A DNA stretch of 64,000 bases from an uncultured Acidimicrobiia bacterium (GTDB lineage Bacteria; Actinomycetota; Acidimicrobiia; Spongiisociales; UBA5794), in contig CAVPHV010000017.1 of the NCBI GenBank assembly GCA_963704825.1, positions 167,325 through 231,324 of the forward strand, in the 5' to 3' direction. How positions within the stretch are numbered: the stretch's first letter is position 1; the number at the start of each line of letters is the position of its first letter. Both the position numbers and the translations under genes were made by a program. The notes under the pieces are model-generated. The model had not been told where the DNA came from and searched no databases. It saw nothing but the letters and a program-made list of their open reading frames with translations. Shown in pieces: positions 4,420 through 16,980 of the stretch.

Positions 4420-5406
4420 CTATTCCAGTTCCCAGATGAGTGGGACGATTCGGTGTGTGCCATCGAGTCCCTTGAGTGACACGGCCATCGGTTCACCGAA
4501 CTCGAAGCCGTGATCGCCCGCCAGTTCTGCGGTAACGGCAGAAGCCATGATCTCGCCTCCCTCAGCTGCGGCGGCGATGCGTGCCGCTTTGTTCACCGTC
4601 AATCCGAAGTAGTCGCCCTCGGCATGGAGTACATCTCCCGAGTGCAGCCCGACTCGGACGCTGAAGTCGACGACGGGAGATGCTGTGGCGACCGCCCGCT
4701 GAATCTTCACCGCGGCAGACAGACCGCCACGGGCAGATGCGAATGTGTACATCCCGCCATCACCGAGCGTCTTGACCACGGTGCCGCCTTCCGCCTCGAC
4801 GATCCGTCGCAGCGCGTCGAAATGGGATCGCAACACTGCCGACCAGCGTTCGTCACCTATCGCCTGGGAGATCTGCGTCGAATCCGCGATGTCAGTGAAC
4901 ATCACCGTTGCGGTTCCGGCCGAAACGTCCGCTGCGTCCCCGCGATCACCCTCGCCGTCGAGCGAAGACACCAGCGCATCAAGACTCGTCGTCAGCTCAA
5001 ACCCATAGAGGTCCTCGTTCGGGACACCGATCGAGTTGTGCATCTGGATGATGCGCCACGTCCCTGCCTCGAGCAGCAGCACGAAGGTCGACCTCATCAG
5101 CACCGGGTCGCCCAGAGTGGCCATCGCAGACCTCGCGGCAGCCCAACCGACCCGTCCGTCCTCGAACGCCCGGAGATGAGAGAGCTGAAGATGCGGTGAA
5201 GAAAACCCCTCGCGGACCCCGGTCAGCTCGCGCGACTGCTCCTTGCTCACCTCCGAAAGCTCGTTCCGGCCCACCCACCATTCATCTGCATCGGTGCCGA
5301 TGCCCAAGAAGTCGGAGGATGTCGACAGGAGATTGAAGGCGGTCTCGTCGTCGACCCCTGAGAGGTAGCGACGAACCAGCGCCTCGATTTCAGGTGACGG
5401 CTTCAT
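4420..5406 (-). CDS. Class III adenylate/guanylate cyclase with N-terminal NTF2/SnoaL-like domain
   Basis: C-terminal catalytic domain VMFTDIADSTQIS...GLHSGDV...GLTVNKAARI. The N-terminal ~150 aa (EWWVGRNEL...TWRIIQMHNS) look like an NTF2-like fold. Confidence 0.8.
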   Translation of the reverse strand: MKPSPEIEALVRRYLSGVDDETAFNLLSTSSDFLGIGTDADEWWVGRNELSEVSKEQSRELTGVREGFSSPHLQLSHLRAFEDGRVGWAAARSAMATLGDPVLMRSTFVLLLEAGTWRIIQMHNSIGVPNEDLYGFELTTSLDALVSSLDGEGDRGDAADVSAGTATVMFTDIADSTQISQAIGDERWSAVLRSHFDALRRIVEAEGGTVVKTLGDGGMYTFASARGGLSAAVKIQRAVATASPVVDFSVRVGLHSGDVLHAEGDYFGLTVNKAARIAAAAEGGEIMASAVTAELAGDHGFEFGEPMAVSLKGLDGTHRIVPLIWELE

Positions 5407-13421: not shown

Positions 13422-14912
13422 GTGGCGGGCAAACGGCAGCCAACCAGCACCTCGAACTTCGGCGCAGGACGCCGGGAGAGCCACGATGCCACGAAGTTCT
13501 ACGAGCGGTTCGCCGCCCCCGAACTCTCCGACGACGACTCCGTGGCCGTGGCACCTCTGCTGGCGGAGATCTGTATTGAGGGAGACTCCCGCGACATGGC
13601 GGCGTTGCCCGACAACTCGGTGGCATTGGTGGTCACTTCCCCGCCCTACTTCGCCGGCAAGGAATACGAGGAGACGTTAGGCCTCGGCGGGGTGCCCGCC
13701 TCCTACGCGGAGTACCTCGGGATGCTCCACGAGGTCTTCGCCGAGTGTGTTCGGGTGCTCGAGCCCGGCGGGCGGATCGCCGTCAATGTGGCCAACCTCG
13801 GCCGCAAGCCGTACCGCAGCCTGTCGGCCGATGTCATCCGCATCCTCCAAGACGAACTGCGCCTCCTGTTGCGCGGCGAGGTGATCTGGAAGAAGGCCGA
13901 GGGCGCCGCCGGGTCCGTCGCCTGGGGTTCATATCGCAGCGCGGCCAACCCGGTCCTTCGCGACATCACCGAGCGGGTGATCATTGCCAGCAAGGGTCGC
14001 TTCGATCGCGCCCGGTCGCCAAAGCAGCGCGAGGCGGAGGGGTTGCCTTTCGACACCAAGACGTCTGCCGACGAGTTCATGGCCGCCACCCTCGACGTGT
14101 GGGACATCCCGTCGGAGAGTGCCCGGCGGGTCAACCACCCCGCTCCCTTCCCGGTCGAACTGCCGCAGCGACTGGTCAAGCTCTACACCTACGAGAACGA
14201 TATGGTGCTCGATCCGTTCATGGGGTCGGGCAGTGCCCTGGTGGCCGCCCTCAAGGAGGGGCGGCGTGCCGTCGGCTACGACCTCGACCCCGGCTACGTC
14301 GAGACCGCCCGCAAGCGCGTCGCCGAGTTCCTCCACGAACGGGCGGAGCGCATCCAACGACACACCACGGCACCGCCGAGCCCGCTGTCGGTTCAGCCCA
14401 AGCTGCCGGATCCCGATGAGAGCTTCCAGGCCAGGGCAACTCGGGAGGGCAAGGCTGCTCAGGCGATTGCTCGCAAGGTCCTGGAGGAGGCCGAGTTCAC
14501 GATCGTCAAGAAGGACTACAAGGTCAGCCGGGCCGGCGTTCGCTTCAACCTCCTCGTGAGCGACAAAGAGGGCGGCCAGTGGTACGTGGATGTCTCCGGC
14601 GCCTTCACCACCACCCGGGGCGGCCTGCTGCGCACCGACACGGTATGGAAGGCGCTCGGCCGGGCACTGGTGTTGCGCGAGAACCCTGAGGTTGGCGATC
14701 ACCCCAGGTTGTTGTTGCTCACTTCCGACCTGCCCAAGCCGGGGAGCGAAGGTGACAAGGCGCTGCGGGCGGCAGGACCGGGTTCGTTCTGGGATGCCAT
14801 CGAGATGTTGTCCGATGACGGTCGCCGGCGCCTCCGGGAGTACGCCACGGGAACTCACGAACACCCGCTGCCCGGGTTCTGGAACGACGCCGATCTCGAG
14901 GGACTGGCGTGA
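13422..14912 (+). CDS. DNA methyltransferase (N4-C/N6-A beta class, TSPPY motif IV before DPFMGSGS motif I) with ~190-aa unassigned C-terminal domain
   Basis: ALVVTSPPYF (motif IV) around residue 72 and VLDPFMGSGSA (motif I) around residue 265; PF01555-like order. SPPY suggests N4-cytosine specificity. C-terminal residues ~310-496 (FTIVKKDYKVSRAGVRFNLLVSDKEGGQWYVDVSG...) are not recognisable to me. Confidence 0.85.
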   Translation: MAGKRQPTSTSNFGAGRRESHDATKFYERFAAPELSDDDSVAVAPLLAEICIEGDSRDMAALPDNSVALVVTSPPYFAGKEYEETLGLGGVPASYAEYLGMLHEVFAECVRVLEPGGRIAVNVANLGRKPYRSLSADVIRILQDELRLLLRGEVIWKKAEGAAGSVAWGSYRSAANPVLRDITERVIIASKGRFDRARSPKQREAEGLPFDTKTSADEFMAATLDVWDIPSESARRVNHPAPFPVELPQRLVKLYTYENDMVLDPFMGSGSALVAALKEGRRAVGYDLDPGYVETARKRVAEFLHERAERIQRHTTAPPSPLSVQPKLPDPDESFQARATREGKAAQAIARKVLEEAEFTIVKKDYKVSRAGVRFNLLVSDKEGGQWYVDVSGAFTTTRGGLLRTDTVWKALGRALVLRENPEVGDHPRLLLLTSDLPKPGSEGDKALRAAGPGSFWDAIEMLSDDGRRRLREYATGTHEHPLPGFWNDADLEGLA

Positions 14913-15232
14913 GAGGAGTGACGGTGGCCTGTGCCGTGGTGCGCGACGAACCCCCGGTGCTCATGCTCGCCGAGGATCTCGACGTGTTGCAGCGAGCGCT
15001 CGCCCTCCGTCTGGTTGCCCGCAACGAACCGCCACGGCTCACCGACGTCCAGCGTGAGGGGATGCAGGCGGCACTGCTCGATGAGCGATGGGGCGATGCC
15101 GTCGCGGCGTGGATCGACCACACCGGAATCGAGGTCGACGTGTACACCGAATCGATCCTCACCGCGGCCGACGTTCCCGCAGACCTGGTCGGGGCCGAAC
15201 TGCAGTTTGCGCCGCTGTTTCGCGGTGGCTGA
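14909..15232 (+). CDS. Small acidic hypothetical protein, translationally coupled to the methyltransferase
   Basis: Its GTG start overlaps the MTase TGA stop (GTGA). 107 aa with a plausible Ala/Leu/Asp/Glu-rich composition; the alternative frames are Arg/Ser/Pro junk. Confidence 0.5.
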   Translation: MRGVTVACAVVRDEPPVLMLAEDLDVLQRALALRLVARNEPPRLTDVQREGMQAALLDERWGDAVAAWIDHTGIEVDVYTESILTAADVPADLVGAELQFAPLFRGG

Positions 15233-15238
15233 GCAACC

Positions 15239-16300
15239 GTGCCGGCACTACGCACCGAGATCACCGAAATCGTCACCGGGTTGGGGATGCTCGGCTTCCC
15301 CAACCTCGATCGAGCACTGGAGGTGCGTCCCACCGCAGTGCGCAATGTTGCGGTTGAGCACTACGACCGGCTGGCGGCTGCCCGCCACGACGGCTCGCAT
15401 CGTCGCGCGTTCGAGGTCGCTTGGCGCAACGGTGTCGAGTTCGCCCGCTCGCCGGAGGGGCTGCGGGGCCGGCCGCCATGGTGGCTGGAGTGGAAAGGCG
15501 GCCACCGTCCTCCCGGCTACGAGCAGGTGCCCGCCGACCTTCGGGTCGATCACGTCTACCTGGTCTCGTGCAAATACGGCTCCAACATCCTGACCAACTC
15601 ATCACCCGCCAATCTGTTCGATCGGTTGCTGGGCGACCGCCGCGACTCGGGGTCGGATTGGTTTCTCGAGGTCGCGCCCGATGGATATCAGGACCTCTAC
15701 CTGGCGTGCCGTGGGTATCTGGGTGCCCCCGGGCTGCCCGACCGGGTGTCCGACCTCGAGCAGCACCATCGTGAGGTTTTGAAGCGGGAATTGCCGCGAC
15801 GTTTTGGCGGCGACCTGCAAACGGTCTACCGGGAATTTGCCGCGGAGGTTGCCCGTTCTTCCGTCGAGCGTTGGAGAGCAGCCATGACCGATCGTCGCGA
15901 CCAAGAAACCCAATTGTGGCGGCTGCTGCGGCTCCAGGCCGCGCCCTACTTCGTGCTCGGCGAATCGGCCGAGGGCCGGCCACTCCAGTATCGGGTTGGC
16001 ACCCCGTGGGATTTCCGCAACCGCTATCGACTACGCAAGCTCGATGCCTGGTCTGATCCGGATCGTAGCCAGCCGGTCGTGTTGTGGCGGGCCGAGGTCC
16101 ACGATCAGCTGACGGGTACCACGACCGAGGTGGCAGGCCACGTTGAGGTGCGGTGGAGCCACGGACGGTTTGCCCAAGCCCCGGAGGCGAAGGTCTATTT
16201 GGGAACGGCACACCATGCGGTTCCCGGTTACGTGCCGCTCAGCCGACCCGAACGCGACCCGGAGCGCCTTGCTCTCGGCTGGGGTGGTGGGGCCTCATGA
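15239..16300 (+). CDS. Hypothetical protein, candidate PD-(D/E)xK-like nuclease (VPAD-x9-SCK)
   Basis: 353 aa. Motif P98-A-D100 ...HVYLV-S110-C-K112 has the spacing of a PD-x(10)-(D/E/S)xK core on a hydrophobic strand. Starts 6 nt after the previous gene and its stop overlaps the next start (ATGA). Confidence 0.5.
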   Translation: MPALRTEITEIVTGLGMLGFPNLDRALEVRPTAVRNVAVEHYDRLAAARHDGSHRRAFEVAWRNGVEFARSPEGLRGRPPWWLEWKGGHRPPGYEQVPADLRVDHVYLVSCKYGSNILTNSSPANLFDRLLGDRRDSGSDWFLEVAPDGYQDLYLACRGYLGAPGLPDRVSDLEQHHREVLKRELPRRFGGDLQTVYREFAAEVARSSVERWRAAMTDRRDQETQLWRLLRLQAAPYFVLGESAEGRPLQYRVGTPWDFRNRYRLRKLDAWSDPDRSQPVVLWRAEVHDQLTGTTTEVAGHVEVRWSHGRFAQAPEAKVYLGTAHHAVPGYVPLSRPERDPERLALGWGGGAS

Positions 16301-16980
16301 GTGCTCCTGTTCCGGCATGGACCACTACGTCGCCGCCGCTCGAAGCTGCAGTCCTCGCGGCGTTTCCCTACCTGGTCGGTGTCCTGCTGGTGGCACTCCC
16401 ACTGCTCCTCGTCCCTGATTCTTGGGATGTCTTTCCCACGTTCGTGATCCAACTCGGCGGCTTGGTGCTCCTCGGCCTCGTCGTCACCACCCGGCTGCTC
16501 GGGTTCACCACCGCAGGCTGGTACCGATGGGTCGGTTGGTCGGAGCGAGCCAGGCGCCTCGCCGGCGATGTTTCGCTGGTTGTGCTGGTGACCGGATTGG
16601 TTGGACTTGTCACGCTGGCGACGTCGGCAGCGCTGCGGCTCGAACCGTCGCTTCAGTTCCTCCAGTTACTGTCGGCGCTCGATATTGCGTGGGCGGGAGC
16701 CGCCATCATGATCGGGGCCTACCGGCTGTGGGGGCGCCGCGCCGCCCTGGTGGGAGGCAGCCTGCTTGGAGTCTTCTGTGTCTGGTCCATCTGGAACTAC
16801 CTGCACATCGTCGGCTTCACCGGTGACGATGGGTGGCTGCTCGAGGGCGGCCAGATCATGCGGCTCGTGCTTCCCTTCGACATGATGGCGGCCGTCGTCG
16901 CCATCTCCCTGCTCGTCGTCGGCTCGGGCCGAGACGACTCGAACCCTCAGCGGATGGCGCAGGCGAGCGACCAGTCGTAG
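16297..16980 (+). CDS. Hypothetical integral membrane protein (~6 TM)
   Basis: The ATG at 16297 overlaps the upstream stop. Several hydrophobic helices (LVGVLLVALPLLLV, LGGLVLLGLVVTTRLLG, VSLVVLVTGLVGLVTLA...). The ORF-track N-terminal extension from 16153 is rejected. Confidence 0.55.
   Translation: MSAPVPAWTTTSPPLEAAVLAAFPYLVGVLLVALPLLLVPDSWDVFPTFVIQLGGLVLLGLVVTTRLLGFTTAGWYRWVGWSERARRLAGDVSLVVLVTGLVGLVTLATSAALRLEPSLQFLQLLSALDIAWAGAAIMIGAYRLWGRRAALVGGSLLGVFCVWSIWNYLHIVGFTGDDGWLLEGGQIMRLVLPFDMMAAVVAISLLVVGSGRDDSNPQRMAQASDQS

Follow-up and report, generated by a model that had tools for sequence, protein, structure and literature searches.

PvuII and BamHI are classical Type IIP restriction-modification (R-M) pairs with beta-class N4-cytosine methyltransferases, and an uncharacterized gene next to a methyltransferase gene is the commonest route to the prediction of new restriction enzymes. 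Among nucleases, the canonical motif is PD-x9-18-(E/D)-hydrophobic-K; in Cfr10I the motif is PD-x55-K-x13-E, the acid being provided by a distant downstream helix and a Ser replacing the (E/D) of the (E/D)xK triplet (PMC2532715). Persistent methyltransferase groups have been described in archaea, including HG12 (CGCG, N4-methylcytosine or m4C), which is an orphan, and HG15 (GGCC), which is always found with a restriction endonuclease (REase) (PMC10609329). Here, we analyzed a stretch of 64,000 nucleotides (referred to as the window) from an uncultured Acidimicrobiia bacterium (GenBank assembly GCA_963704825.1, contig CAVPHV010000017.1, positions 167,325 to 231,324 of the forward strand), in which an unannotated gene, designated X, is linked to a methyltransferase gene. 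X is probably the endonuclease partner in a chromosomal Type II-like R-M module that is persistent and vertically inherited in Acidimicrobiia. On the basis of gene linkage, conservation and weak homology to a hidden Markov model (HMM) of REases, we infer that X has nuclease activity and carries candidate catalytic residues.

In the module as proposed, the methyltransferase would mark the host sites, while X would bind the same sites and cut them when they are unmethylated. A minimal form of the module, represented by distant relatives, would consist of a methyltransferase of about 300 amino acids (aa) and X; in most Acidimicrobiia the methyltransferase would have gained a degenerate nuclease-fold C-terminal domain (CTD), with a 107-aa gene placed between it and X. 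The genes and domains of the module in the window are as follows (ORF, open reading frame; AF2, AlphaFold2).

15239..16300, + strand: gene X, encoding a 353-aa unannotated protein, candidate endonuclease partner of the methyltransferase (ORF, translation)
13422-14912, + strand: methyltransferase gene, 496 aa (ORF)
13422..14381, + strand: catalytic domain of the methyltransferase, residues 1-320 of 496, beta-class (PF01555, PADLOC MTase_II)
14382..14912, + strand: CTD of the methyltransferase, predicted PD-(D/E)xK fold with a degenerate catalytic motif (AF2, Foldseek, Pfam)
14909..15232, + strand: small gene for an acidic protein of 107 aa, conserved, located between the methyltransferase gene and X (ORF, conservation)

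Gene X has a GTG start codon, and the N-terminus of its product agrees with those of its homologues. Across the 80 loci obtained by genome scan (L006-L085), the usual order is methyltransferase catalytic domain, CTD, small ORF and X, directly adjacent to each other, and X and the methyltransferase are adjacent in about 9 of 10 genomes. No methyltransferase was found in the full 6 kb upstream of X in 7 of these 80 loci, and in two more (L049 and L067) the sequence ends so near to X that its presence cannot be judged; in all others the methyltransferase lies directly upstream of X, in the order given above. In the reverse direction, X is carried by 50 of the 62 metagenome loci that were seeded with the CTD and that have enough downstream DNA. 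The arrangement of the genes varies among distant X homologues, as X precedes the methyltransferase in L167/L168, the two genes are convergent in L166, and a short methyltransferase without CTD is followed by X in L169 and L170. Although these distant homologues (L166-L170) are only 27-48% identical to X, the partner of each is a methyltransferase of the same family (53-65% identical), in each case without the CTD. The methyltransferase is always more conserved than X (65% vs 33% in L170, 58% vs 27% in L166 and 53% vs 36% in L169), which is the usual pattern in R-M pairs. An adjacent, co-inherited methyltransferase gene with a separate partner gene, as in Type II R-M systems, is thus found in three gene orders. 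Conserved pairing, variable gene order and a faster-diverging partner together form the comparative signature of R-M gene pairs, and the conserved pairing, variable order and faster divergence of X therefore match this signature. The preliminary description had pointed out that X lies next to an N4/N6 methyltransferase; our analysis supports and extends this observation, as X is the conserved partner of this PF01555 enzyme in about 9 of 10 genomes, the pairing survives reordering, and start and stop codons of the genes in the window are overlapping or abutting.

The methyltransferase itself matches PF01555 over residues 67-297 (2.4e-37) and the PADLOC model MTase_II PDLC03350 (3.4e-83). Its motif I reads D-P-F-M-G-S-G and its motif IV, T72-S-P-P-Y76, is invariant in the homologues, which are 52-82% identical across the loci. 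Among solved structures, the best match is the putative modification methylase 2zie (5e-36), which shares LVVTSPPY, and N4-cytosine methyltransferases were also matched. In beta-class enzymes, a motif IV of the form SPPY/F is associated with N4-cytosine methylation and D/N-PPY/F with N6-adenine methylation. The SPPY motif IV therefore leads to the prediction that the enzyme makes N4-methylcytosine; JGI labels fragments of this methyltransferase as 'adenine-specific'. The relatives that a tblastn search of the methyltransferase against plasmids yielded were all of about 30-35% identity and bore generic names, so that no specificity could be transferred from them.

The X family is large and nearly confined to one class. 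After clustering at 90%, X has more than 3,637 homologues, every one of them labelled 'hypothetical', and these form 633 clusters at 50% identity; the species-level genomes that carry the family number at least 598 and are nearly all Acidimicrobiia, with outliers such as a Chloroflexota cluster. There was no tblastn match to X in plasmid and phage collections and only one partial match in IMG/VR. Neither X nor 51 diverse members of the family matched any Pfam or NCBIfam family at E <= 1, even though these libraries include restriction-enzyme families; PHROGs gave no consistent match for X, the small ORF or the 51 diverse members, and PDB chains at E <= 10 gave nothing for X by phmmer or by profile search. 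The AF2 model of X, built with an alignment of 77 sequences, is a confident single body (pLDDT 88.3, pTM 0.83). Comparison of this predicted structure with the PDB by Foldseek, through which a restriction-endonuclease fold was sought, retrieved no solved nuclease (best E 0.14), and the matches obtained (H-NOX proteins, acid phosphatases and Tn5 transposase, all with E > 0.1) are noise. The only significant structural neighbours of X are three BFVD entries (A0A8D9C8Y9, A0A1J0F9H5 and A0A3G5AE67, E 1e-6 to 8e-4), uncharacterized viral proteins from a marine phage, an unnamed entry and Satyrvirus, two of which are 160-220 residues longer than X.

The one recurrent signal of a link between X and known REases came from the PADLOC model REase_II PDLC03456 ('Type II restriction enzyme'), which matches residues 293-327 of X with an E of 7.6e-4. 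The same model picks up nearly all close members of the family (76 of 77) and about half of the diverse ones (24 of 51), with E values of 1e-3 to 1e-7, and no competing REase model was found among the PADLOC matches of X. The longest alignment is colinear over about 105 residues, from residues 221-329 of the family member P0163 to profile positions 272-375 of 387, so that a full-length significant match was not obtained at the best E of 1e-7; a partial match of this kind indicates remote homology rather than membership. The core of the alignment is the block GHVEIRWSHG(R/K)F...PE-x-K, while the N-terminal two-thirds of X, with the motif of the preliminary description among them, remain unaligned. 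The C-terminal third of X may therefore be related to a known REase family, for which the evidence is weak but specific.

Two hairpins of X partly match the PD-(D/E)xK pattern, and both are conserved. They are listed here as the N-site, which was the motif singled out in the preliminary description, and the C-site.

15530..15577, + strand: N-site, P98-A-D100...S110-C-K112 on a beta-hairpin (sequence, AF2 strands, conservation)
16136..16201, + strand: C-site, G300-H-V-E303-V-R305-W-S-H308-G-R-F...P-E316-A-K318-V-Y-L on a beta-hairpin (AF2, conservation, REase HMM)

The interval 15530-15577 translates as P98-A-D100-L-R-V-D104-H-V-Y-L-V-S110-C-K112-Y113 (codons of D100, S110 and K112 at 15536-15538, 15566-15568 and 15572-15574, respectively), which agrees with the residue numbering given earlier, with V97 just outside the interval. 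In the AF2 model, D100 directly precedes strand 101-103 and S110-C-K112 lies within strand 107-113; the two strands form a tight hairpin, with a further strand at 117-121. By itself, the motif is not beyond chance and proves nothing, since a relaxed pattern, D-x(8-30)-[DES]-x-K, was found in 51% of shuffles of X, the same pattern with hydrophobic context required in about 10%, and the exact D-x9-S-x-K in 1.5%. Three of the five lysines of X are in [DES]-x-K triplets (E84-W-K86, S110-C-K112 and E316-A-K318), and K86 is not conserved. What gives the motif meaning is its conservation, not the pattern alone. D100, S110 and K112 are invariant in 77 close homologues and in 86 Acidimicrobiia sequences (85 fetched loci and the window), and the possibility that the motif residues would prove variable in orthologues was not borne out. 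Of 64 representatives of clusters at 50% identity, several of which are frameshifted, 61 have D100, 58 have S110 (2 have Q instead) and 58 have K112 (3 have R instead); the most divergent subfamily retains D100 and K112 and has Q at position 110. Several other residues of X are conserved to the same degree (E10, N120, R228, R231, Q278, E303, R305, H308, E316 and K318).

Taking these data into consideration, it is hardly credible that the motif is a chance resemblance in a protein unrelated to DNA. The frequency of the relaxed pattern in half of the shuffled sequences and the lack of a fold match for X would agree with such an explanation, but the motif is invariant across the 86 loci and kept in most of the distant members, X is persistently linked to a DNA methyltransferase, and an REase HMM matches X. 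The N-site is a legitimate candidate, considering its canonical x9 spacing, its predicted hairpin and its conserved residues, and S/Q variants of the triplet have precedents in Cfr10I and Mrr. Even so, D100/S110-x-K112 can only tentatively be regarded as the metal-binding and lysine site of X, and it is rated no higher than E303/E316-x-K318, which has a true E-x-K and belongs to the part of X that is matched by the REase model.

In the C-site (codons of E303, E316 and K318 at 16145-16147, 16184-16186 and 16190-16192, respectively), the second hairpin of the AF2 model consists of strand 294-306, which carries E303 close to its end, and strand 315-321, which opens with E316-A-K318. According to the model, either hairpin would have the geometry of short-spacing PD-(D/E)xK sites; the triplet of the N-site lacks the acid, whereas the C-site is canonical. 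X could thus be a nuclease with its catalytic centre at E303 and E316-A-K318, in which case the hairpin of the N-site would serve in DNA recognition, dimerization or structure, and we regard this as a real possibility, although one that falls short of an even chance. The C-site is the best-conserved block of the family, with R305, W306, G309 and K318 invariant in the distant members of one alignment (A5); its triplet is a true E-x-K, accompanied by another acid at canonical distance (acid-x12-E-x-K), it is the sole region of X that is aligned by the Type II REase HMM, and position 110 of the N-site is S or Q and acidic in no member. Moreover, one homologue that adjoins a methyltransferase, P0161 (L169 5001-6089), has lost the entire N-site, with D100, S110 and K112 replaced by K, R and N, and is otherwise intact. 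On the other hand, if the strand ends assigned by DSSP pair as drawn, E303 would face K318 and R305 would face E316, which would also fit a structural salt-bridge ladder. E303 is replaced by Q in two homologues, P0260 and P0141 (L171 983-1999), the latter of which also has A in place of E316, and the C-site has no fold match either. Each candidate site therefore has a natural 'knock-out' (P0161 and P0141), and conservation excludes neither. A His-Me-finger reading, with H308 at the strand end, is conceivable as well, but no conserved helix ligand follows and H325 is present in only 32 of the 64 representatives.

The proposal that the N-site places X in the Cfr10I/NgoMIV family was not supported. 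Besides the lack of profile similarity in the family libraries and the PDB, the geometry of the two motifs differs, and none of the CCGG-family structures (Cfr10I, NgoMIV, Bse634I and SgrAI), though present in the PDB, is among the 50 Foldseek matches listed for X. By comparison, the broader proposal that X is the cognate REase of the methyltransferase was upheld in part: the linkage to the methyltransferase, the conserved motif and a weak but consistent REase HMM match speak for it, while X has no match among solved nucleases by Foldseek and the N-site is one of two equally conserved candidate active sites.

A second candidate nuclease in the locus is the CTD of the methyltransferase (residues ~320-496, ~175 aa), for which AF2 yielded a model with a pLDDT of 90.6 and an alpha-beta-beta-beta-alpha-beta topology. 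Foldseek matches of the CTD in the PDB include NucS 2vld (E 4e-3, prob 1.0), SfsA, EndoMS, XisH, PspGI, EcoO109I and FokI, with E values of 4e-3 to 0.3; the leading matches are mostly PD-(D/E)xK nucleases, with a prob of 0.9-1.0 for six of the top eight (E 4e-3 to 0.1). The Pfam family UPF0102/YraN is matched by 5 of 26 CTD members. According to the structural model, the CTD is predicted to have a PD-(D/E)xK fold. When it is aligned to what we take to be the YraN motif, the D and E-x-K positions are occupied by N(D/A/T) and D-V-S(T/A), respectively, and the lysine is absent, which makes activity of the CTD doubtful. A profile comparison by hhalign, aimed at a possible copy of the CTD nuclease fold within X, revealed no relation between the two. 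It is improbable that the CTD, or a complex assembled around it, is the nuclease of the system, with X as an accessory protein for specificity, regulation or scaffolding. Apart from the fold of the CTD, this explanation could draw on the L135 locus (JGI Ga0075428_100000006), in which the slot of X is held by a 139-aa stand-alone paralogue of the CTD (4853-5272, + strand) with an intact E...D...E-x-K motif (EIDRV...WFEYKGS); this paralogue is 30-36% identical to the CTDs of other loci and 28% identical to the CTD of the window, and it is the single such case among about 170 loci. Nevertheless, the CTD lacks the canonical lysine and has a variable first acid, X has an REase HMM match of its own, and X is paired with methyltransferases without CTD in L043, L046, L064, L080, L167, L169 and L170, which indicates that X is independent of the CTD. 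The presence of an intact PD-(D/E)xK protein in the slot of X in L135 suggests that this slot is the nuclease slot.

The 107-aa gene is 34-66% identical in most loci, it never occurs where the methyltransferase lacks the CTD, and it is dispensable. Its product had no match in any family library. A role as a classical C (controller) protein was considered and rejected, as no helix-turn-helix match was found.

Several observations weigh against X as the endonuclease partner of the methyltransferase, or against the N-site as its active site. The main objection is that intact X genes occur without a methyltransferase within +/-6 kb in at least four independent lineages, as judged by sequence similarity. 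These solitary X genes (L002, L042, L053, L056, L059, L062, L071 and L076, with L002/L003 representing one more such place beside the genome-scan loci) retain all 15 key residues and are flanked by housekeeping genes (nadE, glnA, carD, enoyl-CoA hydratase and FAD oxidoreductase). Complete genomes with X only include NZ_OZ241965.1, which holds L053, and a 5.4-Mb contig with P0082. Furthermore, the REase model covers only the C-terminal hairpin with E303/E316-A-K318, no Cfr10I/NgoMIV relationship was detected for X, and P0161 is without the whole N-site yet stands beside a methyltransferase. The converse arrangement, a methyltransferase with CTD and no downstream X, was found in L110, L117, L140-L142, L148, L149, L152, L155, L156 and L158, some of which retain the small ORF; these loci are orphan-methyltransferase states of the module.

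The occurrence of loci with X only and loci with the methyltransferase only would also fit a role of X as a non-defensive reader or user of a class-wide epigenetic mark, for example as a nickase of the MutH type with hemimethylated sites as its targets, or as a factor in repair or replication, which we consider unlikely. The X family is nearly confined to one class, chromosomal, highly conserved and absent from mobile elements, and methyltransferases that are 'persistent' throughout a clade are, as a rule, orphans that serve purposes other than defence (PMC10609329). In addition, CGCG (m4C) and BAAAA (N6-methyladenine, m6A) methylation has been reported in all marine Acidimicrobiia genomes examined (PMC8919816). 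Against this explanation, X and the methyltransferase are closely adjacent in several gene orders, X diverges faster and X matches an REase HMM, all as in classical R-M pairs, and none of the searches (Pfam, NCBIfam, PDB sequence and profile searches, and Foldseek) brought up a similarity of X to MutH, SeqA or Vsr. A related and somewhat less likely possibility is that X is no defence nuclease and instead reads, or acts on, N4-methylcytosine as a class-wide mark in this lineage, for example as a methylation-directed nickase of the MutH type; the persistent methyltransferase with its degenerate nuclease-fold domain would be its partner and the small protein an adaptor. Vertical inheritance, unusually high conservation, lack of copies in mobile elements and the solitary intact X genes would all be accounted for in this way.

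With regard to the sites that the proposed R-M module might recognize, CGCG methylation has also been reported in Chloroflexi (PMC8919816). Tetramer counts in the window and 834 kb of related loci showed that CGCG is the second most under-represented palindromic tetramer after CTAG, with an observed/expected ratio of 0.72-0.73. Together with the SPPY motif, the reports of CGCG methylation and this depletion make CGCG a reasonable guess for the specificity, although it is a lead only, as the depletion may be general in such genomes. The verified BAAAA methyltransferases have at most 27% identity to REBASE entries (PMC8919816), whereas the methyltransferase of the window matches a PADLOC methyltransferase model at 3e-83, and it is therefore unlikely to be one of the BAAAA enzymes.

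Downstream of X, the window contains one further gene of the same run.

16297..16980, + strand: membrane-protein gene downstream of X (sequence)

The four genes of this run (methyltransferase, 107-aa ORF, X and membrane protein) have start and stop codons that overlap or nearly abut; the GTG start of the 107-aa ORF overlaps the stop codon of the methyltransferase (GTGA, 14909-14912), and the ATG of the membrane-protein gene (16297) overlaps the stop codon of X (ATGA). The membrane-protein gene has no Pfam match, and a homologue downstream of X was found in only 8 distinct loci (e.g., L006, L013 and L026), which are the closest relatives (L001 and L009 are one and the same place and were counted once). 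This gene is lineage-specific and probably outside the module. GC content is flat at 65-68% across the region, and no tRNA or Rfam elements were found in the window; the locus therefore bears no mark of a recently acquired island. An opposite-strand ORF at 15273-16211 was rejected as a gene, since shadow ORFs of this kind are typical of GC-rich DNA and homology was found on the + strand throughout.

The kind of system described here is already known; the X family itself is unnamed, has no Pfam or NCBIfam model and has a fold that Foldseek did not match to solved structures. X probably belongs to a new family of REases, encoded in a chromosomal R-M-like module of unusual persistence. Class-wide persistence, the fusion of the methyltransferase with the CTD, the small gene and the solitary X genes are unusual features, which do not yet amount to a new mechanism. 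If X is the restriction partner, it would define a new family of REases whose fold has yet to be matched to a solved structure, and the module would be a rare bacterial case of a persistent, vertically inherited R-M pair. Several Acidimicrobiia methyltransferases were scored as orphans in a metaepigenomics study (PMC8919816), and members of the present family could be scored in this way merely because their partner is unannotated. Moreover, the CTD fusion and the small gene give a hint of an assembly that is regulated or has several subunits. Should X turn out not to be a restriction enzyme, it would be a candidate reader of a clade-wide epigenetic mark. P0161 and P0141 would be suitable natural controls for which of the two sites is catalytic.

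Comparison with known systems shows both shared and distinct features. The N-site of X has the x9 spacing of the canonical PD-(D/E)xK motif and, like Cfr10I, a Ser in place of the (E/D) of the triplet; unlike Cfr10I, the motif in X is D100-x9-S-x-K112, with 11 residues between D100 and K112. The CTD of the methyltransferase shares its alpha-beta-beta-beta-alpha-beta PD-(D/E)xK core with NucS/EndoMS and YraN (UPF0102), but differs from these proteins in its missing catalytic lysine, its variable first acid and its fusion to the C-terminus of a methyltransferase. As in pairs of the PvuII/BamHI type, a PF01555 methyltransferase with a SPPY/SPPF motif IV is found beside a poorly conserved partner, and the order of the genes varies while the pairing is kept. 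By contrast with these pairs, X has Ser/Gln in place of the acid and the searches brought up no solved REase similar to it in sequence or structure, and the module is vertically persistent class-wide rather than patchy or mobile, with an extra nuclease-fold domain and an inserted small gene. Finally, although the module is bacterial (Acidimicrobiia) and has the CTD fusion and the small gene, unlike the archaeal HG12 and HG15, it resembles these groups in that its methyltransferase is conserved throughout a high-rank taxon, and HG15 is an example of such a system in which a companion REase is retained.

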